Notes under the pieces: model-generated
Told to the model about the DNA's origin: nothing
What the model saw: only the letters and a program-made list of their open reading frames with translations
Databases searched by the model: none
Program-made: the position numbers and the translations under genes
In this document: piece after piece, positions 1,807 through 59,733 of the stretch
How positions within the stretch are numbered: position 1 is the first letter of the stretch
Layout: the number at the start of each line of letters is the position of its first letter
NCBI GenBank assembly: GCA_054600435.1
Contig: BAAIJX010000005.1
Location: forward strand, 682,001 to 746,000
DNA: 64,000 nucleotides
Source: Neophaeotheca triangularis
Taxonomy: Eukaryota
Direction: 5' to 3'

Positions 1807-3341
1807 TCAGAGATCGTCATCATCAGCATTCTCGTTCTTATTGTCACGACGAATCGGGATTTTGATGCCTTGCTGCGCGAACTTTTTGCTCAACGGTGTG
1901 CTCTCAATCACTCCGGGGAACTTCTTGGCGCTGAAGACCTGGAATTTGTCGCTGAAACACGAGGCGAGGACGCGGGCTTTGCCCTTGTTGAGACCGCCGT
2001 TGCTCGAGGGATTGATGCCCGTGCCTACGTCTATAAAGTTCATTTTGAGGCTGGGACGAGATATTAGTGGGAAACTCTTTGGTTTTTGAGGAGACACAGG
2101 AATAGTGTGGAGACTCACCGGAACCAACCCTCGGTCCGTACCGACAGATCTTGCAGCACGAACCAGAATCCCGGTTGGTCTCGCGTGTCGTCTAGCTTAG
2201 AAGCGTTCACGGTGAGACTTCCGATGAGATTGCGTGAAAACATGGCCGCCGAATGCTGTGCCACGGGCATGGGGTATTGCTGTTGTGGCATGTACATTTG
2301 CCCGTTGAAATTCATAGGCGCGCCGTATGGATTGCCTCCCATTTGCTGCATTTGCCCATACTGGTTGGGGTGGTGCAGTGGTGCCATGAATGATTGCCCA
2401 GTGGCTGGGTCTTGATAGTAGCCCATGGGTGTGCCGTACTGATCTACCAGCGGTCGCTCGGGGGGAGGCGGGTACGAAGTCGTGGTGGCGGTTGAGATGG
2501 AAACTGCTGGGGAAGAGGTCGAGGAACGAACCAGGTTCACTTCCTGGCCGGCCTTTTCGTCCCAGAGATCCACAGAGAGCACGAAAAAGGAGCTATCGAT
2601 TTCCGAGACGTCCACCTCGTTGCCAGTTCCTATTTCTGTGATGATGAGTCTAACGCACGGTGGTGGTGTTACCGGTCTGCGGTCTTTGTCGCCGAAACCG
2701 CACATTCTCGCCCGCTGCGGCTGTTGCTCGCATATCAGACGGTATTGGTAGTTACCATTAATGCCACTGAATGGGGCGGTTCGGTCGAGTGCCGGCGCGC
2801 TGGGCTGAACGCTAGGGCCACCTGATGGCGGCGGAGCCAGTGTCTGCTGTGACATGGCTTGTTGCTCGTTCCACTGCGGCTGCGAAGGCGCACTCGAGCT
2901 GACTGGAGGGTATTGTGATTGGGAGTATGGGGATTGCTGCATCTGTCCTTGCGGCAGCGCGGAGTTCATACCGGAGTATACGGGTGGCAGTTGCACCGGT
3001 TGGTGCATTTGAGGCTGGCCATACTGCTGCTGCTGTTGTTGCTGCTGATGCCTCTGGTAGTGCTGCGGATTCTGCTGGTGGAGGGGCCGAGGGTCGGCTG
3101 GTGGTTGGACAGGCGGTCCTACGTAGTGGGGATAGTGTCCTTGGTCTGATTGCTCGTACTGTTGTCCTTGCTGCTGCTGCTGCGGCGGCGGCGCCTGCTG
3201 CTGTTGCTGGTAATACGGATTCATGTCTTTGCCGCTCGTCGTAGTATATGGATGTGTGGAATGAAGAGCGGCGTTACTGTTGCCGCTCAGCTGCAAAGGT
3301 TGAGAGGATGTTGGGTGGGTGTGGTACAAGTGCTGGGTCAT
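1807..3341 (-). CDS. velB: Velvet-family regulator VelB; exons 3341-2119 and 2050-1807 (~488 aa)
   Basis: Split velvet domain: QQPQRARMCGFGDKDRRPVTPPPC...SRNLIGSL...WFVLQDLSVRTEGWFR|LKMNF...FQVFSAKKFPGVIESTPLSKKFAQQGIKIPIRRD, with a low-complexity insert between the halves as in VelB. Intron 2051-2118 (GTGAGT...CTAAT...CAG) joins the frames. An alternative start at ATG 3224 is possible. Confidence 0.92.
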
Positions 3342-4327
3342 GTTGCGACTGTCGTCGAGCCTGGCTCTTTCTGATATTCCACCCTACCAAGCAAGTGCTG
3401 TCAAGTCTCCAAAAGAGCAAGGAGCGATGCGATTTTCTATTGTGCAAGGAGCTCTCTCTTGACTTGGCGCGGAGTGTTGCAAAGGAAGGTGGGAAGGTGG
3501 TAGCGATTGTGGCTCTCAAGCTTCAAGTCACCAGAAATCCAGGAATGCGTATTGGATCGTCGTCGAGATACACTCGGCCGGAAGCGTGTAGAAGCAGTCT
3601 TGCCCGCAGACCTCATCGCTGACCACACGCGCGTGCCATGTCTATATTGTCTTGCTTTGGAACAACAAATACGCGAGTCTCGTCGAGTCCCAGCGAACTG
3701 CCGCAACGCCCAAGTATCGTGATTCCCCTCGAGCTCCTCTCTTGCGAATATTCTCCGGTGGCTTGCGCCCTCTCCGAACTGGTGCGAAGAATTGTCGCAA
3801 TGGATGCGGTGTGGGCGGACGCCGTGGCAGTGATGTCGTACACGGATGCGCGATTCTGCAGCAAAGGGTCAACGATCGCTCTCAGCCAACGACGCAATTG
3901 GAGCCATCTGTCTGCACCCGGCTACCTACATTCGAACCTGACAATCTCCCTGGGTGTGCTGTGACCGGTACTCTTTTTGATGCCCGACTCCCAAGGCCAC
4001 GGCAGACGCAAGCTCCCCGTCGATCAGCTTTCCAGGATCTGGGTCAAACGTCTGAAATCTCGATTCGATGCGACGCGAGAAGGGTGCTGCAGCGCGCTGG
4101 GGGCTCTGCGCAGAATGTTGGTGATGTGTTTAGCGACAACAACGACCCGAGAGAGCGGTACCGTGCAAGGGCACAGGGCGAGGGGAGGGCGGCTCGTAGG
4201 CGGGAGAAGTGGTAGGGACAGGTAAGGTACGAGACGACGAGTAGTGAGCTGTCAGTCGAGCGTGCAGAGTGCAGAGTACAGATAGATTACGGAGCTGGCA
4301 TGCAAGACGCACAACAGTCGCAGCTGT

Positions 4328-40657: not shown

Positions 40658-41957
40658 ATGCATTACAGTAAGCCATCACCATCATCACTCTATCAGATGC
40701 TGCTTGACATTTCGTCGCTGACCACCCCATCACCTTACAGTCCGCTTCCTCAAACTGCCCAAGGTGCAAGTCGACAAGAACAACATCACCCTCAAGGCCG
40801 TCGTCACAATCACCACCGATCTCGGCGAGACTTTCCACCCCGAAGACCTCACCCTCGTCGCTTCATTACGATCCCCTGATACTGGGGGCGAGATATATCT
40901 GCGGCGCAAAGTTGAATGGACTGGCAGCGACGGCGCACGATCGCTCCCAATCACCCTCGACCTCTCCCGCTCCGACACAGATTGGCCGGCGTGTCTGCAT
41001 GTGTCAGCAAAACTAGACAACCGACAAGAGCATCGCGGCAAGCCATCAGCCGACAACTTCCTCCCACCTATTCTCGACGTCTGGAGTGGCCTTCTCAATC
41101 CAACAAAAGGCCAGTTCGACTCCGGAGGCCGAGTCGAACGCCGATTCACCGCCCTCTCAGAACGCCAACTCTCCATCCTTGAAGACGCCGGCGACAGCAT
41201 AGCCCGACACCTCTGGGACGGCAGCCTCGCCCTAACCCAGCACATCGACCAAACCATCGCCCTATCCCATACCACCACCAACCTCCCCCTCCTCGAATAT
41301 GTCCTAGTCTCCGCCACTTACCGCCGTCTCCACGTCCTCGAACTCGGCTGCGGCGTCGGTATCGTAGGCCTGAGCCTTGCTCAAGCCATCCCAGATAGCG
41401 ACATCATCCTCACCGACCTCCCAGAAGCCTCGGACATTGTCCACGCCAACATCGCACGCATGAATGCCGCCATCAACAGCAAATGCGCCTTCCAGCCCCT
41501 CGACTGGCTCGACGCCCCTACCCTCCCAGACAAACTCACAACCCGCACCAACGACCTCATCATCGTCAGCGAATGCACCTACAACACGGATACCCTCCAA
41601 CCGCTCGTGCAAACCCTGCAAGCCCTAATCAAACGCTCACCCAAAGCCGTCATCGTCGTCGCGACCAAAACCCGCCACAGCTCCGAATCCGCATTCTTCG
41701 ACATGATGGCCCAGGCTGGTTTCGTCGACGACGGCAAGCTACGAATCCCACTCCCCGGCATTCCTGGACAGGGCTACGCCGACTCGGCCGCTGACGTCGG
41801 TGTCCATATTTTTCACGGTAAAGAGCATCGCTTGAGTTTGAGCCCGAGGGAGAGTCAGGAGGACGGCGTGCCCAAGGTTCGGAAGCGGCATGAGGGTGCC
41901 GTAGCTGCGGGTGCGAGGGAGGGCAAGAGGAGGAGTTGGGCGAAGAGTTCTCGATGA
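40658..41957 (+). CDS. SAM-dependent methyltransferase, Methyltransf_16/METTL21-like (putative protein-lysine MTase); exons 40658-40667 and 40741-41957
   Basis: A 10-nt first coding exon and intron 40668-40740 (GTAAGC...GCTGAC...CAG) give MHYIRFLK. Motifs are DSIARHLWDGS, VLELGCGVGIVG, ILTDLPEA, LDW and DLIIVSECTYN. Confidence 0.88.
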
Positions 41958-45085: not shown

Positions 45086-45934
45086 TCAGTTGTTGTCGAC
45101 CGCCATAACCAAAGCACCCTTACCCCCCTGATCCTTCGCATCAAGCTTCTCCATATCCTCCTTGCTCAGCTCGAAACCAAACAGATCCGAATTGGCCGCG
45201 ATCCTCTCAGGGTTGTCGCTCTTCGGCAACGGCGCCCAGGCCTTTTGCAAAGCATACCTGATCAAAACCTGCGAAGTCGACTTGCCAACTTTGTCCGCAA
45301 TACCCTTCAAATCCGGGTCGTCCTTCTTCTGGTTCCTGACAATCGGGCAGTAAGCCTCAACAGCGATACCGTTCTTGTGGCAGAAGTCTACGACCTCACG
45401 CTGCTGGTTCCAGGGGTGGAGCTCGAGCTGATTGACCGACGGTGGCCAGACCTGTGCGTAGTCCTTGAGCTCGTTGATTTGGCCGATGCCGAAGTTGCTC
45501 ACGCCGATGGCTTTGAATTTGCCCTGCTGCTGCAGCTTCTCCAACGCCAGCCAAAGCTTCTTGCGCTTCTCCGCACCGACTGAGCCGTTGTGGATGAGCA
45601 TGAGATCGACGTAGCCATCTTCGCCGTCGATCTTGCGGACCGTATCGCGGAGTGCCTGCTCGGTCTCTTCGTCCGTCGAGCCGGGAGAGATGATCTTGCT
45701 GGTGATGAAGACGTCTTTGCGCTGGAGGCCTGATTGCCGGACTGCCTCGCCGACTTCTTTCTCGTTGGCGTAGTACTGGGCGGTGTCGATGTGTCTGTAG
45801 CCGACTTTCAGAGCTTCAATGCATGATTTGGTGGTGACTTCGGCGGGCGACTCGTATACTCCGAAGCCTAGGGCGGGGAGCTTGGCGCCGGTGTTGAGAT
45901 TGAGGGTCGACTGGAAGGTGAGCTTCGATGCCAT
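45086..45934 (-). CDS. Aldo-keto reductase (AKR5/2,5-DKG reductase-like)
   Basis: LPALGFGVY, GYRHIDTAQYYANE, VFITSK, YVDLMLIH, AIGVSNF, VNQLELHPW and PLPKSDNPERI. First ATG is 45934; the ORF track starts at an upstream non-ATG codon. Confidence 0.93.
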   Translation of the reverse strand: MASKLTFQSTLNLNTGAKLPALGFGVYESPAEVTTKSCIEALKVGYRHIDTAQYYANEKEVGEAVRQSGLQRKDVFITSKIISPGSTDEETEQALRDTVRKIDGEDGYVDLMLIHNGSVGAEKRKKLWLALEKLQQQGKFKAIGVSNFGIGQINELKDYAQVWPPSVNQLELHPWNQQREVVDFCHKNGIAVEAYCPIVRNQKKDDPDLKGIADKVGKSTSQVLIRYALQKAWAPLPKSDNPERIAANSDLFGFELSKEDMEKLDAKDQGGKGALVMAVDNN

Positions 45935-46191
45935 GATTGTGTTGTGGTGAATCTTGCAAGTGATTTCTAGCAAATACCAAATCTCAACGGCAGGTAGTTG
46001 TCGAGCAATTGCCTAGGTAGAATCGACGTTTTGTTGACAGCTCACTTTTAAACCTTGACGTTCCCAAAGCGGAAAGAGGGCAATACATGTCGTCATGCGG
46101 CGACGTCGGCGAAAGCAAAAACCGTTTCCCCGACGACTCTAACCAGACATCACCGCCCGCAGGCAGAACAGCTGGACGGGCAGACAGAAAG

Positions 46192-47418
46192 ATGGTCCTC
46201 GAAGCGATCAGATACCGCGAGGGCAGACTGGACATTCTCAACCAGCTCAAGCTCCCTCACCAGACCGAGTATGACGAGGTCACGTGCGCAGAAGATGGCT
46301 GGCATGCCATTAGGGACATGCGCACTCGAGGCGCTCCAGCCATCGCCATAGTTGCCGCGCTATCCTTGGCGGTGGAACTGCAAACCACGACCTTGTCCGG
46401 AAATGCTGAGGAAGTGCAAGCTTTCGTTGTCGAGAAATTGGATTATCTCGTCACGAGCCGGCCAACGGCTGTCAATCTCGCAGATGCAGCGCGCAAGCTT
46501 AAGAAAATCGTCAACTCGGCCGCAACCAAGAGCGATGCTGCTGGTCCGAGCGTAGTCAAGGCTTATTGTGATGCCGCTTCTCAGATGCTCGTCGACGATG
46601 TCTCAGACAACCAAGCCATTGGCAAGTATGGCGCTGAGTGGATAGCAAATCAGGCAGGGGGGAAGCCAGCGAGCGTTGTAACGCACTGCAATACCGGGTT
46701 TGTGATGAAAGTGCAATAATGTATGTAGGGGATGAGATGCTGATCGACTGCCAGATCATTGGCAACAGCAGGCTACGGCACCGCCTTGGGAGTAATTCGT
46801 TCCCTTCACGCCAACAAATCCCTCAAGCATGCCTATTGCACCGAGACCCGCCCGTACAACCAGGGCTCCCGCCTCACAGCTTTCGAGCTCGTGCACGACC
46901 AGATCCCGGCAACTCTAATCACCGACTCCATGGCATCCGCTTTGCTCCGACTCAAGGGGCCTTCGGAGAACATCACCGCCATCGTCGTAGGCGCAGACCG
47001 AGTCGCTGCCAACGGCGACACGGCGAACAAGATCGGCACCTATCAGCTCGCCATCACCGCCAAGCATCACGGGGTGAAGTTCCTCGTCGCCGCGCCGAGG
47101 ACCACGATAGATCTCGAAACCAAGTCAGGCGCTCACATCGTGATCGAAAAACGCGCTGGCAAGGAGATGACCATGATCAAGGGTCCACGGTTCGATGGTG
47201 TCGATCTAGACCTCAGCCAAGCCGAGACCGTGAGCATCGCTGCTCAAGGCATCGATGTCTGGAACCCTGCTTTTGATGTGACGCCGGCGGAGTTGATCGA
47301 TGGCATCATCACCGAGATTGGCGTTGTTGAGAAGAACGCTGATGATCGCTTTGACCTGTCGATTGCCATGGAGGCGAAGAATGAGGGTATCAAACCTGTC
47401 AGTATTGGTGGGCTTTAG
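46192..47418 (+). CDS. MRI1: Methylthioribose-1-phosphate isomerase (methionine salvage); exons 46192-46697 and 46755-47418
   Basis: MVLEAIRY...[76 protein letters not shown] and [10 protein letters not shown]. Intron 46698-46754. Confidence 0.96.
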
Positions 47419-47579
47419 GTTTCGGTAGCGTACGAAGATGATCTGCCCATCAAAGAGCAGTTACTCAAAGCGAAATATCCTATGTACATGGCGAGAAAGA
47501 TGAAACTATGTGGTTCTTCTTCGTCCCTCGTGTTGACCCAACCACAGAACTATTCAAATTCCCCAGCACCGCAACGCTA

Positions 47580-50500
47580 CTACGCGGGTGCGCTGGACAC
47601 AGTCATAGCGATATTGCTCAAACTGATGATACAGGGGTCGGCTTCGCAATAGAAGTAGAAGATCAAGGCATTGCCATCGGCGACCTGAGTCCTGGACACT
47701 CGGATCGCTGTAGGGCTTCCGACCTCCCACGAAGCAAAAATGTCGCTACTTCCTCCGAGGCGCACATCAAGGTAAGCATAGCCAGAGACGGTGAAGCCAA
47801 TGTCGAACTGCAAATTGACGATTTGGCCCGCGCGAGCGAAAGGCAATATGCCGCCACTGGTTTGTCTGAAGCTGAAGCCGTCGTAGGGGGTTTGTCTGGG
47901 GTGGGTGAAAGTCCTGTTCGGTGTTAGTTCCGCTATTAATTTGCCAATCACAAGGCGTGTTCAAAGTGACCAGGGATACTTGCACTTGGCCGCCAGAGGC
48001 TTGTACGATCATCCCGTAGCGGGCCTGTTCGGGCACGTCCCATGGAGCAATCGTTCCGCTCGCAAAGTTCGTGTTCTGGAGTTGAGGTAGGACCTCGGCC
48101 GGTGGCGGCGGAGGTGGCGGTGGCGGCGGAGGCGGCGGAGGAGGCACCGAAGGAAGCGTGTAAGTCAGAGTCTGCGTCTGGACCGCTCCCGAAACCGTCG
48201 TCGTAAAGGTGAGGAAGATGGAACTCGCCGGGAGTGTCGTGAATTGTGTAACGACATTTGTCGTCCGGATAGTAGAGACGATAGTCCTGGTCAGGGTACT
48301 CGCAGGCGCAGTCGTGATCTGAGTGCTCACAATCGTTACTGGCGGACGGATGCTCGTAGCCGTGACGATAGCTGTAGAAGCAGGCTGCACGCTGATTTGA
48401 GTAAAGGTGATGGGTAGTGTCGTTGTCGCTGTGATGAAGCTTGTCGATCCGTCTTGAATGGAAGTAAATGTAATAACTTCCGTGCTCAGATAGCTGGAGA
48501 CAATTGTAGAAGTCCTATCAAGTGTCGTCGTCTCTACGAGTATGCTCGTTCGCGCAGGCTCGGTTGTTGTGAAGATGTTGGTCGAGACGAGTACGAAGGT
48601 CTGCGTTTCAGTCCCTGGAGGAATAGAAGTGACTACGGTGGAAGTCAAGTATTCAGTCAAGGTGGATGCCGGCAGTACTGAAGTTAAAGTGGCCGTCTGC
48701 GTCAGGGGAGCAATGCTGAAAGTCTCAGTAATGTAGGACACTGTGGACTCCGTCTCACGAAGAGTTTGGGTTTCTCGGGGCAAGACGGTTGTGACCGTGT
48801 TGGGGAAGAAGCTGGTTGTCACCGTTGTTCCTGGAATGACAGAGGTCTCGGTAGAGACGATAGTGCGCTCTGGCTGGATGCTGGTAGAAATCTCCGTAGT
48901 AACATAGGTCAGAATAAGAGGAGGTATTGAAGTTGTCTCGGTCTCGCGTGGAAGGGTGACAGCCGGGAGGCTCGTGGTCTCTCGTACTGTCCCAGGAGGA
49001 ATCGAGGTAGTGTCGGTCTCGCGAGGGAGCGTGAGAGTAACTGCCTCGAGGCTCGTCGTCTCCCGTACAGTCACAGGGGGAATTGAGGTGGTATCAGTCT
49101 CCCGCGGGAGTGTGATAGCTGCAAGACTCGTCGTCTCTCGTATGGTCTCTGTCCCAGTCCGAAAGTCTACTGAGATGGTTGTCTCAGTCTCACGGGGAAG
49201 TGTGATTGCTGCCAGACTGGTCGTCTCGCGCGGAAGAGTAGTGACAATGGTGCGCGGATCGAGGCTAGTGGTCTCGCGATCGAGTGTAATCGGGGGAATG
49301 CTAGTGGTCTCGCGATCCAGAGTAATGGCTGCCAGACTGGTCGTCTCGCGCGGAAGAGTAGTGATAATGGTGCGCGGATCGAGGCTAGTGGTCTCGCGAT
49401 CGAGTGTAATCGGGGGAATGCTAGTGGTCTCGCGATCCAGAGTAATAGCTGCCAGACTGGTCGTCTCGCGCGGAAGAGTAGTGATAATGGTACGCGGATC
49501 GAGGCTTGTGGTCTCGCGATCGAGTGTAATCGGGGGAATGCTAGTGGTCTCGCGATCCAGAGTAATGGCTGCCAGACTGGTAGTCTCGCGCGGAAGAGTA
49601 GTGACAATGGTACGCGGATCGAGGCTTGTGGTCTCGCGATCGAGGGTGATTGGTGGTATGCTGGTCGTTTCGCGCGGAAGAGTAGTAATGACGGTACGCG
49701 CATCGAGGCTTGTGGTCTCGCGATCGCGGGTGATTGGTGGTATGCTGGCCGTTTCGCGCGGAAGAGTAGTAATGACGGTACGCGCATCGAGGCTTGTGGT
49801 CTCGCGATCGAGGGTGATTGGTGGTATGCTGGCCGTTTCGCGCGGAAGAGTAGTAATGACGGTACGCGCATCGAGGCTTGTGGTCTCGCGGTCGAGGGTG
49901 ATTGGTGGTATGCTAGTCGTTTCGCGCGGAAGAGTAGTAATGACGGTACGCGGATCGAGGCTTGTGGTCTCGCGGTCGAGGGTGATTGGTGGTATGCTAG
50001 TCGTCTCGCGCGGAAGAGTAGTAATGACGGTACGCGCATCGAGGCTTGTGGTCTCGCGCGGAAGAGTAGTGATAATAGTACGCGCATCGAGGCTAGTCGT
50101 CTCGCGCGGAAGAGTAGTGATAATAGTACGCGCGTCGAGACTAGTCGTCTCGCGCGGAAGAGTAGTGATAATAGTACGCGCATCGAGGCTAGTCGTCTCG
50201 CGGTCGAGGGTGATTGGCGGGATGCTAGTCGTCTCGCGATCGAGGGTGATTGGCGGGATGCTAGTCGTCTCGCGATCGAGGGTGATTGGTGGTACGCTAG
50301 TAGTCTCGCGGTCGAGGGTAATAGGTGGAATGCTAGTCGTCTCGCGCGGAAGAGTAGTGATAACAGTACGCGCATCGAGGCTAGTCGTCTCGCGCGGAAG
50401 AGTAGTGATAATAGTACGCGCATCGAGGCTAGTGGTCTCGCGGTCGAGGGTGATTGGCGGGATACTAGTCGTCTCGCGATCGAGGGTGATTGGTGGTATG

Positions 50501-52402
50501 CTAGTCGTCTCGCGGTCGAGGGTGATTGGCGGGATGCTAGTGGTCTCGCGATCGAGAGTGATTAGTGGTATGCTAGTAGTCTCGCGGTCGAGGGTGATAG
50601 GCGGGATGCTGGTTGTTTCGCGGTCGAGAGTGATAGGGGCGATGCTAGTTGTCTCGCGATCTAGGGTGACAGGGGCAATGCTAGTGGTCTCGCGGTCGAG
50701 AGTGATAGGGGCGATGCTAGTGGTCTCGCGATCAAGCGTGACAGGCGGGATGCTAGTTGTCTCGCGATCTAGGGTGACAGGGGCAATGCTCGTTGTCTCA
50801 CGGTCGAGAGTGATAGGGGCGATGCTAGTGGTCTCGCGATCAAGCGTGACAGGCGGGATGCTAGTTGTCTCGCGATCTAGGGTGATAGGGGCAATGCTAG
50901 TTGTCTCGCGATCCAGGGTGACAGGGGCAATGCTAGTGGTCTCACGGTCGAGCGTGATAGCAGGAATGCTAGTTGTCTCGGTCTCGCGATCCAGGGTGAC
51001 AGGCGGGATGCTGGTTGTCTCGCGATCCAGGGTGACAGGGGCAATGCTAGTGGTCTCACGGTCGAGCGTGATAGCAGCAATGCTAGTTGTCTCGGTCTCG
51101 CGATCTAGCGTGATAGGCGCAATGCTCGTTGTCTCACGGTCGAGCGTGATAGCAGCAATGCTAGTTGTCTCGGTCTCGCGATCTAGCGTGATAGGGGCAA
51201 TGCTCGTTGTCTCGGTCTCGCGATCTAGCGTGATAGCAGGAATGCTAGTTGTCTCGGTCTCACGATCTAGCGTGATAGGGGCAATGCTCGTTGTCTCACG
51301 GTCGAGCGTGATAGCAGGAATGCTAGTTGTCTCGGTCTCACGATCTAGCGTGATCGGAGGGATGCTCGTGGTCTCAGTTTCGCGATCTAGCGTAATTGGG
51401 GGGATGCTAGTGGTCTCGCGAGGAAGTGTGATTGCCGCGAGGCTAGTGGTCGCTGTGGCAGTTCTTTCGTCTATTGAGATAGATAGTGTGGTCTCTGTAG
51501 CAGTCCTCTGGTCTATTGAGATAGAGACGGTCGTCTCGGTTTCGGTCTGACGGGGAAGCGTAATTGGGGCAATGCTCGTGGTTTCGCGGTCAAGAGTAAT
51601 TGCCGGGAGGCTAGTGGTCGCCGTAGCGGTCCTCTCGTCAATAGAGATGGACAAGGTCGTCGCAGTCTGGGTCTGGGTTTCGCGGTCAAGAGTAATTGCC
51701 GGGAGGCTAGTGGTCGCCGTAGCGGTCCTCTCGTCAATAGAGATGGACAAGGTCGTCGCAGTCTGGGTCTGGGTTTCGCGGTCAAGAGTAATTGCCGGGA
51801 GGCTAGTGGTCGCCGTAGCGGTCCTCTCGTCAATAGAAATGGACAAGGTAGTCTCGGTCTGGGTCTCACGGTCGAGAGTAATTGCCGGAAGCGCCGGGAG
51901 GCTCGTTGTCGCCGTAGCGGTCCTCTCGTCAATAGAAATGGACAAGGTAGTCTCGGTCTGGGTCTCACGGTCGAGAGTAATTGCCGGAAGTGCCGGGAGG
52001 CTCGTGGTCGCCGTAGCGGTCCTATCATCTATGGAAATAGATAGAGTAGTTTCGGTCTGGGTCTCACGGTCAAGAGTAATTGCTGGGAGGCTAGTAGTCG
52101 CTGTCGCTGTAGCTGTAGCTGTCCTTTCATCTACCGAGATGGACAAGGTAGTCTCGGTCTGGGTCTCACGGTCAAGAGTAATTGCTGGGAGGCTAGTAGT
52201 CGCTGTCGCTGTAGCTGTAGCTGTCCTTTCATCTACCGAGATGGACAAGGTAGTCTCGGTCTGGGTCTCACGGTCAAGAGTAATTGCTGGGAGGCTAGTA
52301 GTCGCTGTCGCTGTCGCTGTAGCTGTCCTTTCATCTACCGAGATGGACAAGGTAGTCTCGGTCTGGGTCTCACGAGGGAGAGTAAGAGCGGCAAGGCTCG
52401 TG

Positions 52403-52433
<31 letters not shown>

Positions 52434-55400
52434 TTGCTGTAGCTGTCGCTGTCCTTTCATCTACCGAGATGGACAAGGTAGTCTCGGTCTGGGTCTCACG
52501 AGGAAGAGTAAGAGCGGCAAGGCTCGTGGTCGCTGTCGCTGTCGCTGTCGCTGTCCTTTCATCTACCGAGATGGACAAGGTAGTCTCGGTCTGGGTCTCA
52601 CGAGGGAGAGTAAGAGCGGCAAGGCTCGTGGTCGCTGTCGCTGTCGCTGTCGCTGTTGCTGTCGCTGTCCTTTCATCCACCGAGATAGATAGGGTCGTAT
52701 CCGTCTCACGAGGAAGAGTAAGAGCGGCAAGGCTCGTCGTCGCTGTCGCTGTCGCTGTAGCTGTCGCTATTGCTGTGGCTGTCCTTTCATCTATCGAGAT
52801 GGATAGGGTTGTCTCCGTCTCACGAGGAAGGGTGAAAGCGGGGAGGCTAGTGGTGGCCGTGGCGGTCCTCTCATCTATCGAGATGGATAGGGTCGTCTCC
52901 GTCTCACGAGGAAGGGTGAAAGCGGGGAGGCTAGTGGTGGCCGTGGCGGTTCTCTCAGCTATCGAGATGGATAGGGTTGTCTCCGTCTCACGAGGAAGGG
53001 TGAAAGCGGGGAGGCTAGTGGTGGCCGTGGCGGTTCTCTCATCTATCGAGATGGATAGGGTTGTCTCCGTCTCACGAGGAAGGGTGAAAGCGGGGAGGCT
53101 AGTGGTGGCTGTAGCGGTCCTCTCATCTATCGAGATAGACAGGGTCGTATCCGTCTCACGAGGAAGGGTAATAGCGGCGAGGCTCGTGGTCGCTGTTGCT
53201 GTTGCTGTTGCTGTAGCTGTCCTTTCATCTACCGAGATAGATAGGGTCGTCTCGGTTTCCCGTATCGTTGCGGTCCTTTCATCTATCGAGATAGACAGGG
53301 TCGTATCCGTCTCACGAGGAAGGGTAATAGCGGCGAGGCTCGTGGTCGCCGTTGCTGTTGCTGTTGCTGTAGCTGTCCTTTCGTCTACCGAGATAGATAG
53401 GGTCGTCTCGGTTTCCCGTATCGTTGCGGTCCTTTCGTCTATTGAGATGGACAGACTTGTCTCTGTCTCCCGAGGAAGAGTGAAAGCGGCGAGGCTCGTG
53501 GTCGCTGTAGCTGTAGCTGTCGCTGTCGCTGTCCTTTCATCTACCGAGATAGACAGGGTCGTCTCGGTTTCCCGGACCGTGAGTGCCGCTAGGCTGATGG
53601 TCTGATTCTCAGTCCTGGTCTCAGCGGGCAAAGTCAATGCCGCAAGTGAGGTGATTTCGGTAGTGGTCACTTGCGGGAGTGTATAATTGACAACCTGGGT
53701 AGAGGCCGGTATGGTCGAGTACTCAGTAAAATACAGTGTGGTGGGAGTGTAAGTGGTCTCTATTGTCTGTGTTTCGCGGGGCAAGACGCTGGTTTCGGTG
53801 AGGAAGCGATCGGTGGTGAAGAAGCGGTCCGAAGTAGCAGTCAGCGTGACGAATTCAGTCCTGGCCGGTTGAATTGAGATGGAAACTGTGGTGATAGCGG
53901 GCTGAATGGAAGTGCTAACGATGATCGAAGTTTCCACTGGCAAGGTGTATGTCACTTCGAAGATCGTGGTAGAAATCTCGCGGCTCGTTTCGGTCTGAAT
54001 TTGCGTGGATGCAGGAGCTGTTGAAATCACGGTGCGGTCAACTAGAGAGATCGTCGTGAGCGTTCCCGTGGGAGCATATGAAACAGAAGTGGTCGTGATG
54101 GGAGCAAGGGTCGTCGTCAGGGTATAAGTCACACCAGATATTGTCGTCAGAGTCTCTCGTTCTGTGCTAACAATGGTAGTCAAGACTTCGCTGGTCAAGG
54201 TCAGGGTGTAGCCAGAGGTCGTAATGAGCGTCTCAATTGCAGTTGAGACGACTGTAAGATCTGTGACTGAGGGTTAGCAATTTGGTGTGACCTGGTAGTT
54301 AGCCCTCGCGGCTTTCAAGTTTCATGAAAGCCTGTCCAAGAGGTGGCAATGTCTTCTCGATGGGACGAATGGAAAAAGCTTGAACTCTGCCAAGGGGGAA
54401 GGGGATGCCAGGAAAAACAAGCTTACCTATGGTTCGATCAACAGTCTCAGTATCAGTGACAAACGACACCTCGCGGGTAGTCTGGGTAGCAGTCAAGCTC
54501 TCGACCAAAGTCGTGGGCACGAGGCTAGTGAGCACGACGGTGCTAGCTTCGGGGGTAAAGGTAATAGTCGAAGCATCCTCGATCAAGGTCGATGTCACCG
54601 GTGGCGGTATCGACAGTGTGGTCACTAGTATCGTCTCGTAGCTGACTGAGAACTCGCGAGATGTCTCGGTGATTGCGGGTAGCAGGCTCGTGAGCACAAT
54701 AGTGCTTGCTTCCGGGAAAATCGTAATGGTTGAGGCGTTCTCTGCGAGGACTGAGGTCACTGGTGGGGGGATAGACAGTGTTGTCACGTAGATCGTCTCG
54801 TAGCTGACAGAAAACTCCCTTGATGTCTCGGTGATCGGGGGTAAAGTGAAATTGACCGTCGTAGGTACTGCCGTGGTGATCGTATATGTGCTTGGCAATG
54901 GAGTAATTACGACCGTGGAGGCATCTAGAATCGTCGTGACCGGCTCTGGGATAGATGTCGTCGTAATGAACAGCGTCGAGTAGCCGGTGTAGTACGATAT
55001 GGTGCTGATGATCTCTGTGGAGGCCGGAAGCGTCTGAGTCTGCGTAAGAATGTAGGTGCTCGGCCACGGGGTTGAGATGATAGTGGAGGCGTCTAGATAG
55101 GTCGTGATGGGGTCTGGATACGCCGTAGTGGTCAACAAGATTGTAGCGTAGCTGAAAGTGGTCTCGGTGGAGGCTGGAGGATAAATTGTTGTTGGCACAA
55201 GGGTAGTATAGACGATAGTGCTCGGCTCCGGAGTGAATGTCACGGTCGATGCGTCGAGCGCATAGGAGGAGATCTCGCCAGGGAGCGTCGTAGTCAGTAC
55301 GACTGTCTCATAGCTAACAACAAGCTCAGTAGAGGCCGGAGGAAAGAATGTTGTTGGAACAAGAGTAGTAAACACGACAGTGCTCGGCTCTGGAGTGAAT

Positions 55401-57841
55401 GTCACCGTGGATGCGTCGAGCGCATAGGAGGAGATCTCGCCGGGGAGCGTCGTAGTCAGCACGACTGTCTCATAGCTAACAACAAGCTCAGTAGAGGCCG
55501 GAGGAAAGAATGTTGTTGGAACAAGAGTAGTAAACACGACAGTGCTCGGCTCCGGAGTGAATGTCACCGTAGATGCGTCGAGCGCATAGGAGGAGATCTC
55601 GCCAGGGAGCGTCGTAGTCAATACAACAGTGACAAAGCCTGTGTAAAAAGATACTTCGCGAGATGTCAAAACTTGGCTGGTGGTTTCGATGCCGTCCACT
55701 CGAGTGGTCGCGGTCGCGGTCTGGGTCTGAACCACAAAAGCCGTGGTCGTCACAAAAATTGACGTGGTCACGGTAAGCGGTTGCTGGGTCTCGACGGAGC
55801 TGGAGGTCGTCCCAGGAGTGGGGACAGAGACAGGCTCAATGGTGACTCTTTCCAGACCTACATATGCGTTGCCGATGCACACAACGTTGAAGGTAGCGAT
55901 AGAGGATCCGTCCGCCTCGGCGGTGAAAGCATAGCTGTATAGTGTGGATACTGATGAAAGCTGGTTGGGACTGCCGCAAGTCTGATCACCGCAGATTGTC
56001 AAGGCGCAGTTAGGCAAGGTGTTGCCGAACTGAGAACTGGCAGCGAAGGTGCTGAGGATGTACTCTCTACCGGCGATGGTGGTGAAGCTCTGAGTAGCGT
56101 TGTAGGACAGCGGCTCTTCTGCTTGACGCTTTTTCTTAAGACCAGGTGCACCACTAGTTCCAAATGTCAACAAAAGGAAGGTTTCATCACCGATTGTATC
56201 CACTGGCGGGTTTTGGGTAGGCTCAAAGGCCTGAGCGGTTACTAGTAGAGGATTGGAAGCTGTGCCGGACTCAGCCAAGTTGGTAGCATCCGCGACGATT
56301 GGGGTCGACCCGGGAAGAGGTGGAATACTCGGGGAAACGCTACTGCTTTCACTAAAAGTCTGACCAGGGCTGGTAGTATCGGCTCCGGGCAACTGGCATG
56401 TCGTAACATCTCCAGACACAGTCACGGTCGCGGTCACAGTCAACTCGGGTGGCGAAAGGGTTGTAACAGATCCAAGTGTTGTGCTACCAGCACCCTCGCC
56501 GGGAAACGGGAGGCACAACGAAGAGTTTCCGGCAATTACTGTGACCGTCGAATTTTCTCCGTATATAAAAGACGTTATGGTACTGGCATTGCTTGGTAGT
56601 GTGCTGAACAGGTAGGAGATGACTGTCGAGACCATCACCGGGGCGGAGGTGGGATTCAACGTCGGAGTGATGACTCCCTGTGATTCGCCAGTTGGGCAAA
56701 TTGAACCATTCAAGAAGGAGGTAAAAGTTGACACTACGGTAGATGTCGCAGTCGCTAGGGATGGTGGAGAGGCATCTGGCGGGCAAGAGCCGTTGTTCAC
56801 GTATGAGGTGAATGTCAGCGGCGTAGTAAATGGAGCAGACGGGCAGCTGGCCTCTACCGTGGAGACTGGCCCGGGCAAAAAAGAAGTCACCGTCTGCTGT
56901 GCGCCAGGCTCATCAGTCTGCGTGCTAAGGCTCAAGTCGGCGCTCACGGTTGAAGCACCATCGATTGTTGGACAGCTCAGGTTGCCCGAGATGTAAGAGG
57001 TGACGGTCTTCTCCAGAGGCGGCAGGCTCGTCAAACTAAAATTCGATCTCGTAATCGTTTGTGATATGTACACGGTAACCGTTGTAGAGGTAAGATGGCC
57101 CAAGCTAGCTATGTCGCTCGCTGGAACGTAGGAGGTAATAACGAGGCCAGAACAATCCTCTGGATTTAAAGTCACCGTGGTAGCAGCGGGACAGGTTGGT
57201 GTGGTGTCGGGATTCACGCTTGGCCCACCAAAGAGACTGCTGGTAAATGCGGACGATTGCCCCGTCGATGTCGCTTGGCTTGGGCCAGCTGGATATTCGC
57301 TGGCCCACGAGCTGGTCGCAAAGGTACCACCGGGAAGAGAAAGATTTTGCCCAACCGAAGTCGCCTGGGTCGAGATCGTGGGGCTTTCGCTGGACCACGA
57401 GTTAGGCAACGAAGGTTCGCCTGGAAATGCGAAGGATTGACTAGTGGTCGGGGTCTCTATCGACTCGGGAAGACCTTCATCGGAAGAGACATCGCTGGCT
57501 TCAGGCGACGCAGTTGATATATCCGTCGAGGAGACCGAGCTCGTTCCCAGTGAACCAGGAGTTCCCGGAACTGACGCAAGGGTAGTGAGTGTGGTGAGCC
57601 CCGATGGCTCTGTGCAAACAAACTCAGAGGTTGTTGATGAGGATGGACCCGGAAGTTGCGAGATGATATACGTCGACTGCCCCGAAGTATAGACGTATAC
57701 CGTTCTTGGCCGAGTGACGCATGGTCCTGTCGACGTGACGGTGAAGACGTTAGAATCAACGCTGTTCCAGTAGGAAAGTTGCTGTGCTGTTGCTGTGTAG
57801 GCACTAGCGAGCGTGCACAGAAAAATGATCGGGAGTCGCAT
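47580..57841 (-). CDS. Giant secreted Thr/Ser-rich tandem-repeat (mucin/adhesin-like) protein, ~3,343 aa; exons 57841-54427, 54266-47984, 47913-47580
   Basis: Signal-peptide-like start MRLPIIFLCTLASAYTATA. Intron 54267-54426 (GTAAGC...GCTAAC...CAG) joins the 1189-aa and 2143-aa ORFs in frame. Intron 47914-47983 (GCAAGT...ACTAAC...CAG) joins to the 47580-47951 frame. Exon lengths sum to 10032 nt. Confidence 0.82.
48960..53600 (-). repeat. Coding tandem-repeat array in the giant gene (12-, 14-, 16- and ~28-40-aa units sharing TTS...TL(P/D)RE)
   Basis: Visible in both DNA and translation. For example, a 120-bp higher-order unit recurs at 49211, 49331, 49451 and 49571. Confidence 0.95.
55140..55640 (-). 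repeat. Three near-identical 162-bp (54-aa) coding repeats, followed by diverged copies toward 54430
   Basis: gcgtcgagcgcataggaggagatctcgcc occurs at 55251, 55413 and 55575, a period of 162. Confidence 0.92.
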
Positions 57842-58373
57842 AGCATCATTGTCATCTAGACGCAACAAACTTCAAGACCTGGCCTAGAGAGTATCCTGGC
57901 GAGGACCTCTCGACTGTTAGTAGAGTGGCAGATGATTGTTTGGAGATCTTCAAGGAATGAAGCCGAAGTATGGGGTCCAGTAAATCTAATACCAAGCATG
58001 CCATGAAGCTCTGGAATGCAGTTGGCACGCATACTCGGCATACTGCTAAGCAGCGATCTGGAACAAGACCTTTCATCCTGCATCCCTGTCCACCGTGAGC
58101 AAGGTTGTTCTTATCCCTCTTTGTCTTCCACGCGGCATCTCGGAATCTGCGCCAATGGGTTGAGAGCGTCCAGATTGCATTTAGAACCCTACGCTGGGAC
58201 GACGAGCGTTTTGCTGTCGGGGTGAAGTTGCGAGGTGGCCTCGTTGAGCAGACGGTCGGCGGGCCTAGCTAGCCTACACCTCCATGAGATCCCAAGGCTT
58301 GCCTGGCGGGTTGAGTAGATCTTAATAGCACGGAAAACAAAGGTCTTATAGCGAAGCCTAGATAGGCTTCTGG

Positions 58374-58402: not shown

Positions 58403-59733
58403 GTCGTCAAGTTTTACGTTTCATCACTCGCCGGATGATGAACATATTTTTCTGTTTCAAACATAATTAGTATTGTGTGGTAGAGCCACATACATTCATA
58501 CCAACTAAAAGATCCGTGGATATTTCTAACAGTGATGATTAGAGACTTCGAAGAGAATTTGAAGCCGCTTACGCGACAATGATTGTGCTAGCGAAACAAG
58601 CACAACCATCTCCTCCTCAAGTCCGGCTGACCCTCAATCCTAGTCGTCGCTCCCTACCACATTATTGCCATCTGCTGCCCACCCGCCTCTCGCGCCCTCG
58701 GATCAAGGCACCGTGCGCCAGATTGTTCTTATCCATCCCTTTTCGCCTTCTACGCGGCATTATCCGGACTATCGGTAAAGGAACGCTCGCCGGGAGCAAC
58801 TCCTTTCGACGGTTCTTAGCAAATGAGAGCAATACGTGATGGCGGAAGGCTTCTTTTTGCTTTCAGATCCAAACCGGGCCCGAGTGTTTAAAAAACATGG
58901 TGGTCCCTGTAGCCACGCTGGAACTTGGAAGTCATGTCAAGAAGACCTTTATGCCTGGTGGAGCGCAGAATTTCTGAGCAAGGGCCCTGTGTTTCGGAGT
59001 CAGTCTGATAGGAGGACGCCGGTGTAGCACATGGATGCAGGCGGGGCGCCATCACTTCGCGCGGCGGCTGAACCATGTCACCGAGACCAAATCGTAGCGC
59101 ATCGTCTGGGCCAATGCGTGGACATTATTGTTCCAGGGTAGATGATGCAGTAGGAGTAGTAGGAGTAGTAGCAGTCAGAAGTACATAGTAGTACAGGTAC
59201 TGAGGTAAGGTAGTAGTAATTCTGTACCGTGATCCGTGAGGTACCTCCAGTATGGGGTTATCGTTCGGCGCCAAGCATACCTACTGTATCTGGCCCTACC
59301 ACAAGAACCAAAAGGGAGGCCCCACTGTGAAGCTGGAGCCGGAAGCGCCAAGATTCCACACCAACCAACCTAAGGCATGCGCATCCTCTGACGTCCCACC
59401 GTAAACCGGCCGCTCGCTCTTTCTTATTGAGACGACGACACATACCACATCTTCTACTACCTAGGCACCTTACCCTCGACACCAAACACCATACCATACC
59501 ATACCACCTCATACCGTATTCTATTCCGAACACCAAGCGAACACTTGGTGGCTGATACATTCACTTCCACCACTCGCCATCACACGTCCAACATCTACAC
59601 TATCGCTAGCACAGCGGACTATCATCCCTGCCTTGGCGCACGCGTTCCCTGGAAATATTCGCCCTGAGGGCCCTCGCTTTGAATCCATCCTACTACTTGC
59701 CAGCCCTCAGACACCTATGGCGCAATCGTCGAA

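Follow-up and report, generated by a model that had tools for sequence, protein, structure and literature searches.

What does a ten-kilobase succession of Thr-rich reading frames in Neophaeotheca triangularis encode, and does it make up a single gene? The frames lie on the minus strand of a window, by which we mean the whole 64,000-nucleotide (nt) stretch analysed (contig BAAIJX010000005.1 of assembly GCA_054600435.1, positions 682,001 to 746,000), and all coordinates given here are those of the window. A preliminary description had proposed that three open reading frame (ORF) pieces splice into one coding sequence of about 10 kb, specifying a secreted Thr-rich repeat protein of some 3,340 amino acids (aa). 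This proposal was borne out: with two introns joining the pieces, a single minus-strand gene runs from its ATG to a TAG stop (47580..57841, the stop at 47580-47582) through three exons, and its spliced coding sequence of 10,032 nt, whose only stop is the terminal one, yields a predicted product of 3,343 aa that begins with a signal peptide, as judged by hydropathy, and consists of 24.9% Thr.

The minus-strand stop-to-stop frames concerned span 54299-57871 (1190 codons), 47767-54273 (2168 codons) and 47580-47960 (126 codons). The first of them has its first in-frame ATG at 57841, with an in-frame TGA just upstream (57874-57872). The second has only one Met in its 2168 codons, at codon 2088, and the Met of the third stands at codon 119 of 126; because neither offers a usable start codon, these two frames are not genes of their own. 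Exon 1 (54427..57841) encodes residues 1-1138 and the first base of codon 1139, and is joined to exon 2 (47984..54266) across a phase 1 intron of 160 nt (54267..54426) that has a GTAAGC donor, a GCTAAC branch site and a CAG acceptor; the repeat theme of the protein continues across this intron. A phase 2 intron of 70 nt (47914..47983; GCAAGT donor, ACTAAC branch site, CAG acceptor) lies inside the C-terminal domain and leads to exon 3 (47580..47913), which holds the last 111 codons and the stop.

The splicing of the three pieces as first described stands for intron 1, a GT-AG intron, but needs correction for intron 2, which has to be read as GC-AG: when the donor region was read and the join checked, no GT donor at intron 2 was found to preserve the frame. 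The GC-AG join is supported because no other join reaches the frame of exon 3, and that frame has a homologue (a protein designated P0004, described below). Passages of PMC7072748 describe GC-AG introns as the major non-canonical class, spliced by the U2 machinery and accounting for about 1% of introns or less, and give 98.7% of fungal splice-site pairs as GT-AG. Because intron 2 is of the GC-AG type, gene callers limited to GT-AG would truncate or frame-shift the gene and lose its C-terminal domain. Taking together the splice signals, the missing ATGs, the homologue of exon 3 and the variation among isolates, we conclude that the sequence predicts one real three-exon gene.

That variation could be followed in other sequencing runs, one from another isolate of the same organism (X2) and two from air metagenomes (X3 and X4). 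Contigs from X2 and X4 cross intron 2 without an insertion or deletion (indel), and because these contigs are independent, an assembly frameshift at this point is unlikely. Over 47594-48156, X2 carries only two indels, of 3 nt and 18 nt, both in frame: the shorter affects one Gly codon at 47850, within a loop at which the alignment with P0004 likewise shows a gap of one residue, and the longer, at 48100, is six Pro codons, the poly-Pro hinge being shorter in X2. Among the 40 of 48 substitutions listed, 25 are exonic, 15 of these being synonymous and 16 lying at third positions (3 of 5 in exon 3); the other 15 lie downstream of the stop, and none falls within intron 2. A fraction of 0.44 of the sampled words occurs in X3 and of 0.10 in X4, with contigs that are 99-100% alike over 200-250 nt, and parts of 47300-49000 are without cover in runs X3-X5. 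At two places X2 has a pair of contigs of similar depth, with 12 versus 1 differences at 47445-47623 and, on opposite strands, 7 versus 6 at 48127-48274. Two haplotypes may be present, or the genome may be duplicated or heterozygous, or the sample mixed.

The order of parts that had been listed for the protein was recovered in full: signal peptide, Ser/Thr/Pro-rich region, KKKR, Cys-containing domain, 54-aa repeats, short charged repeats, poly-Pro hinge and C-terminal domain, all encoded on the minus strand. The putative signal peptide (residues 1-19, 57785..57841) has Arg as its second residue, a hydrophobic core 11 residues long and Ala at both -3 and -1, in line with the -3/-1 rule of signal-peptide cleavage. 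It is followed by the Ser/Thr/Pro-rich region (residues 20-513, 56303..57784), which contains 10 Cys and 8 of the protein's 13 N-glycosylation sequons. The recurring T(V/F)TS(Y/F)...CP motifs reported for this region were found in part: four sites have the T(V/F)TS(Y/F) core, and several of the matches are then followed by Cys-Pro, whereas the other three of the seven matches were obtained only with a loosened pattern, [TVI][VFIL][TI]S[YF]. Next comes an internal stretch that is a candidate globular domain (residues 514-672, 55826..56302; 4 Cys), within which lies KKKR (residues 569-572, 56126..56137), the sole dibasic site of the protein and a candidate Kex2 site. Seven beta-prone repeats of ~54-60 aa with Ile/Val/Thr runs occupy residues 730-1122 (54476..55654), and a degenerate Thr-rich stretch (residues 1123-1339) separates them from the charged Thr-rich repeat stalk (residues 1340-2960, 48802..53664). 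The stalk had been put at about 1,550 aa; it is present as described and measures 1,621 aa. Beyond it are a degenerate Thr/Ser/Ile/Val-rich stretch (residues 2961-3179), a run of 15 Pro (residues 3180-3194, 48100..48144) that is length-polymorphic, being 18 nt shorter in X2, and the C-terminal domain, a predicted beta-sandwich (residues 3196-3343, 47583..48096) that is interrupted by intron 2 and has 2 Cys and no Lys.

Besides Thr, the most abundant residues of the whole protein are Ser (10.9%), Leu (8.6%), Pro (8.1%), Ala (8.0%) and Ile (7.9%). Lys is nearly missing: it accounts for 4 of 3,343 residues, three of them within KKKR, compared with 4.8% for Arg and with 4.6-9.1% Lys in four neighbouring ORFs. 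This avoidance extends to the C-terminal domain, which has no Lys, and to the only homologue of that domain, with none among the 108 residues of P0004.

Hydropathy heuristics revealed no transmembrane (TM) segment, the best 19-residue window outside the signal peptide scoring 1.56 and containing Pro and Glu. By the same heuristics there is no hydrophobic tail of the glycosylphosphatidylinositol (GPI) type, as had been noted from the first; the extreme C-terminal residues are polar or small. The top 12-residue hydropathy window at the C-terminus (1.82) corresponds to a strand that is conserved in P0004, and it is followed by six non-hydrophobic residues. On these features of the sequence, the protein is most likely secreted without a membrane or GPI anchor.

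We examined the repeats at the levels of both DNA and peptide. Tandem Repeats Finder returned 37 rows between 48100 and 55624, and three of the seven ~54-60-aa repeats are near-identical (162-nt period, 2.9 copies, 93% matches). The stalk contains about 29% Thr, 9% Ser and 7% Pro, has no Cys and carries a net charge of about -107; cut at its (D/P/V)RE anchors, it falls into 82 pieces, of which 35 are 12 aa long, 13 are 16 aa and 8 are 14 aa. The 35 twelve-residue units occur in 30 DNA versions but as only 9 peptides; their pairwise differences are distributed 988/130/3635 over the three codon positions, and codons with a single change are synonymous in 2955 cases versus 325 non-synonymous. Units of 16 aa (n=14) comprise 11 DNA versions and 5 peptides, with 264 synonymous versus 67 non-synonymous changes, and the corresponding figures are 20 versus 6 for the 28-aa units and 29 versus 10 for the 54-aa units. 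The pairs of units that enter these counts are not independent of one another, and the direction is unambiguous: the repeat peptides are under purifying selection.

Two long plus-strand ORFs that run antisense to the repeats (48908-51550, 880 codons; 51551-53605, 684 codons) were considered as genes and rejected. Their codon-usage scores are -0.127 and -0.065 versus +0.021 for exon 2, and their conceptual products are rich in Arg, Val, Ser and Gly and have no signal peptide. Because the third-position pattern fits the minus-strand frame, they appear to be antisense by-products of repeat composition; they could mislead ORF-based annotation. The 54-aa repeat region also gave a weak match to CshA_repeat, a repeat of a streptococcal adhesin, at E 0.0046; its 18 bits fall short of the 27 that Pfam requires, and the match is probably compositional.

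We searched for relatives of the folded parts of the protein. The domain encoded by exon 3 was compared with 1.84 billion representative sequences at a cut-off of E≤0.001, and four proteins were retrieved. One is a true relative: P0004, a 108-aa singleton from a Logan contig of 2,174 nt, matches at E 2.7e-11 with 46% identity and is conserved through the last strand to the C-terminus. The other three (P0005-P0007) were set aside as chance matches, being long animal- or bacterial-type repeat proteins that aligned over stretches of 27-70 residues repeated 4-8 times. Word-seeded searches yielded no homologue of the 100-aa Cys domain among proteins of 176-2000 aa, and none of residues 11-700 of the exon 1 product among proteins of 654-2083 aa or 2084-5000 aa; the negative outcome of such word-seeded searches, crowded as they were with low-complexity sequence, is weak evidence that homologues are absent. 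Metagenome scans gave 168 pattern matches with the C-terminal alignment and 362 with the internal domain, of which none was confirmed in either case. At the level of sequence, therefore, both globular domains are near-orphans, in keeping with the initial impression of a family that could not be recognised: Pfam and homologue searches were empty except for P0004.

Folded domains had been placed on both sides of the stalk, and all-beta models were indeed obtained for each. For the C-terminal domain, AlphaFold2 (AF2) applied to the exon-3 part produced an all-beta model of seven strands with a predicted local distance difference test score (pLDDT) of 61.8; this model omits the first ~35 residues of the domain, which exon 2 encodes and which start LQNTNF. 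Foldseek returned no row at E≤0.001 for it, and the weak rows include chitinase-associated, CBM2 and CBM3 modules. A generic beta-sandwich is thus a reasonably supported prediction for the modelled C-terminal domain.

The reading that we favour, and to which we assign an even chance, is that the gene encodes a secreted, heavily O- and N-glycosylated surface or matrix fibre without a GPI anchor, acting as an adhesin-like tether. It starts from what was computed here in silico, namely the gene structure, coding frame, domain order, lack of TM and GPI features, selection on the repeats and orphan status of the domains. The signal peptide would carry the protein into the endoplasmic reticulum, and the Thr/Ser-rich middle of 2,500 residues would be O-mannosylated and so become an extended acidic rod. 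Mucin-like chains span ~0.25 nm per residue, and at this value the stalk would reach ~0.6 micrometre, a length that far exceeds the thickness of the wall. In the Golgi, Kex2 may cut after KKKR, as suggested by its known KR specificity and by the striking concentration of Lys in this tetrapeptide. Once outside, the protein would have no lipid-derived anchor and would be held by its ends; because such an anchor is lacking, only the ends or aggregation can account for its retention. The internal (514-672) and C-terminal (3196-3343) beta-sandwiches might bind polysaccharide or protein ligands, one end on the producer's own wall or matrix and the other on the substrate or a neighbouring cell, while the Ile/Val/Thr-rich 54-aa repeats might supply cohesion of the beta-aggregation type. 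Either end might be the one that anchors the fibre, and any adhesion phenotype is, like the glycosylation, Kex2 cleavage and ligand binding, inferred.

Several results weigh against this reading. Pfam assigned no family to any non-repeat piece, even at E≤10 (hmmscan), and when the PDB was searched by sequence, the C-terminal profile had no match and the internal domain a single row attributable to chance (E 0.67). AF2 run on the single sequence of the internal domain gave an all-beta model that, with a pLDDT of 36, is unusable, and the fold matches of the C-terminal model are only as strong as those commonly seen for unrelated beta-sandwiches. In the ESM Atlas, the internal 158 residues fell near CBM_4_9/DUF642/GalBD-like (galactose-binding-like) clusters at 0.94-0.90 (top scores 0.94, 0.94 and 0.93), values that are to be taken as a lead and not as a test, scores of at least 0.9 being reached by 4-10% of shuffled proteins; these neighbours share 151-165 features with the domain versus the 170 typical of true members. 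The C-terminal piece fell near unnamed bacterial clusters at 0.90, with CBM_4_9 at 0.83-0.82. The C-terminus had been likened to a carbohydrate-binding-type beta-sandwich; the beta-sandwich survives as a model, but the lead to carbohydrate-binding modules is weak there and stronger for the internal domain. Carbohydrate binding is accordingly a hypothesis for both domains, with the better hint for the internal one. Nor do the two domains look like paralogues: BLASTP gave no alignment between them, and their local alignment score, 29, falls just short of the shuffle mean, 29.9 (z -0.18, with 292 of 500 shuffles as good).

Two further points concern the layout. KKKR lies mid-way in the 159-residue stretch behind the lead to carbohydrate-binding modules, so that cleavage would nick the domain unless this is confined to the 100 residues that follow KKKR; if the domain is 573-672 only, the N-terminal region of 550 residues would be released or held non-covalently. 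In addition, the conservation of the repeat peptides exceeds what a glycosylated spacer needs, and the stalk may for this reason have a function beyond that of a tether.

Does the protein belong to a class that is already known? The preliminary description implied that a folded C-terminal head in place of a GPI signal lacked precedent, which is not the case: Map4/Mam3 of fission yeast and BAD-1 are built in this way according to passages of PMC6023273. As described there, Map4/Mam3 are alkali-extractable and have a signal peptide, Ser/Thr-rich tandem repeats, beta-aggregation-prone segments, a functional folded domain at the C-terminus and no GPI signal, all of which recalls the present protein. 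Their C-terminus, however, in the family of Linder and Gustafsson, is a GLEYA/lectin-like or DIPSY domain (PMC6023273), whereas the C-terminal pieces here matched no Pfam family and contain no DIPSY or GLEYA string (DIPSY being checked by letter motif alone). The present protein also exceeds them several-fold in length, has an additional folded domain ahead of the stalk and contains charged D-R-E repeats. BAD-1 of Blastomyces, as passages of PMC6023273 portray it, is a secreted protein without GPI in which tandem repeats make up most of the chain and a C-terminal chitin-binding domain mediates re-attachment to the wall, much as we propose; each of its repeats is a 24-residue Cys/Trp loop, and the C-terminal domain is of an EGF-like, chitin-binding kind (PMC6023273, PMC3708853), unlike our stalk, which has 0 Cys and no WxxW motif, and our C-terminal domain, which has 2 Cys and an all-beta model. 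SUN wall proteins likewise combine a Ser/Thr-rich, disordered region with a folded, glucan-binding domain and are secreted without TM or GPI, as passages of PMC13251364 describe them, but they differ about tenfold in size and have no long tandem-repeat stalk, and Pfam detected no SUN domain here.

The familiar yeast adhesins (Flo, Epa, Als and Hyr/Iff) share with the protein a signal peptide, a stalk of repeats (presumably glycosylated here), stretches rich in Ile/Val/Thr that are prone to aggregation, and polymorphism in repeat length; unlike it, they begin with a lectin or Ig-like head and end in a GPI signal. No Pfam match to PA14 or GLEYA at E≤10 was found in the non-repeat pieces, nor any GLEYA letter motif, and Pfam matched neither the Als Ig-like domain nor the 36-aa Als repeats. 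Bacterial fibrillar adhesins such as CshA are comparable in their very long stalk of repeated small beta units and adhesive end, but here the gene is eukaryotic and intron-bearing and its product predicted to be O-glycosylated. The CBM_4_9/DUF642 group resembles our domains in being Atlas neighbours of the internal one (and, more faintly, of the C-terminal one), in the predicted all-beta sandwich and in a size of ~150 residues; it differs in that neither domain has a profile match at E≤10 and in that the fold searches were non-specific. The Pir repeat core is DGQ, and this string has 0 occurrences in the protein, which sets it apart from Pir wall proteins. Kex2-processed repeat proteins of the Rep1/KEP type have many KR sites, compared with a single dibasic site in 3,343 aa here. 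Because each membership fails on a defining domain, we place the protein outside every named family tested; word searches of open-access text, which cannot show that none exists, found no described equivalent.

The architecture as such (signal peptide, repeats, C-terminal domain and no GPI) is thus known already, and the protein is not categorically new. What is new here is a pair of orphan domains, one with a single relative among 1.84 billion representatives, together with purifying selection on short charged repeats and a near-total avoidance of Lys that is common to the homologue P0004. A bolder proposal, which we consider unlikely, is that the gene represents an undescribed class of non-GPI, near-lysine-free tethers, in which two unrelated orphan lectin-like beta-sandwiches ~2,500 residues apart would flank a rod of D-R-E units (12 and 16 residues) that is constrained in sequence and periodic in charge, and that has its own structure or binding role in place of being a passive mucin. 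Such tethers would link polysaccharides of the wall or matrix to one another across distances below a micrometre.

Other explanations assign the weight differently among the stalk, the ends and the gene model. The protein might be a protective or structural component of a coat or mucilage, a hydrated, acidic, O-glycosylated polymer that retains water, chelates cations or shields the wall and whose ends only hold it in the wall or exopolysaccharide. This account, which overlaps the tether reading and which we judge somewhat unlikely, agrees with the composition and net charge of about -107 of the stalk, with the lack of a recognisable lectin or adhesin head in Pfam, and with the presence of the same DNA in air-metagenome runs X3 and X4, an airborne life being compatible with a need for stress protection; yet the charged repeat peptides are conserved far beyond what composition would need, and the presence of two different folded domains, along with Cys in the N-terminal region, points to specific binding. 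The same conservation could instead mean that the stalk itself is functional, not as a disordered mucin but as a regular folded or self-associating rod (for example beta-solenoid-like, or a salt-bridged array of 12- and 16-residue D-R-E units), so that the protein would be a structural fibril whose surface is defined. The commonest 12-aa unit is present in 14 identical copies from 11 different DNA sequences, second-position differences make up 130 of 4,753 in the 12-aa class and 0 of 431 in the 16-aa class, and the placement of charge and Pro is strictly periodic. We nevertheless hold this to be quite unlikely, in that a Pro-Pro in every unit and ~37% Thr plus Ser fit an extended glycosylated chain equally well, and the conservation could reflect concerted evolution combined with selection for glycosylation spacing.

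Both these accounts and the tether reading presuppose that the gene model is right. It would be wrong if the C-terminal domain were not joined to the rest, with intron 2 unspliced or the gene frame-shifted and decaying, or if exons 1 and 2 were separate products. Intron 2 does need a GC donor, against the 98.7% of fungal pairs given as GT-AG in passages of PMC7072748, and in-frame introns inside the long exons are possible. An error of this kind is decidedly improbable, however, given that frames 2 and 3 have no usable start codon, that AAGT follows the GC donor, with an ACTAAC box just upstream of the CAG acceptor, that the GC-AG join alone reaches the frame with the homologue, that X2 and X4 contigs cross the intron without an indel while exon 3 varies in frame, and that the repeat theme is continuous across intron 1. 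Its size, signal peptide and Ser/Thr-rich repeats might also suggest a signalling mucin like Msb2 or Hkr1, or else a GPI-anchored wall adhesin of the classical type; hydropathy found no TM segment, cytoplasmic tail or hydrophobic C-terminal GPI signal, and Pfam no PA14, GLEYA, Als or other adhesin head, which makes either identity highly improbable.

The genes around the locus are of the housekeeping type that had been reported for MRI1 and IRE1; both were found, together with an aldo/keto reductase and a Methyltransf_16 gene. Our gene sits between an IF-2B/MRI1-type gene and IRE1. The former is convergent, with its stop at 47418, and because the stops are 161 nt apart, the 3' untranslated regions of the two genes probably overlap. 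IRE1 (kinase and Ribonuc_2-5A domains) is divergent, and its frame begins at 59683. The aldo/keto reductase ORF (45086-46012, minus strand; E 4.7e-44) and the Methyltransf_16 ORF, a lysine methyltransferase (40722-41957, plus strand; E 1.5e-42), show nothing unusual. No other long Ser/Thr-rich ORF was found within the 64-kb window.

Adhesion and matrix proteins of filamentous and black-yeast-like ascomycetes are described in passages of PMC6023273 as barely characterised, and secretion followed by rebinding through a terminal glycan-binding domain is suggested there to be a possibly common, though unexplored, mode of attachment in filamentous ascomycetes. With two candidate binding modules and no lipid anchor predicted, the gene offers a testable candidate for this mode of secretion and rebinding, and its further assets are one dibasic site and stalk peptides that have been conserved while their DNA drifted. 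If none of the proposed functions is true, it would be one more lineage-specific Ser/Thr-rich secreted protein, of which fungal genomes have many. If the domains bind defined polysaccharides, they would represent new carbohydrate-binding families, and if the stalk is structured, the usual view of Thr-rich repeats as mere spacers would change.

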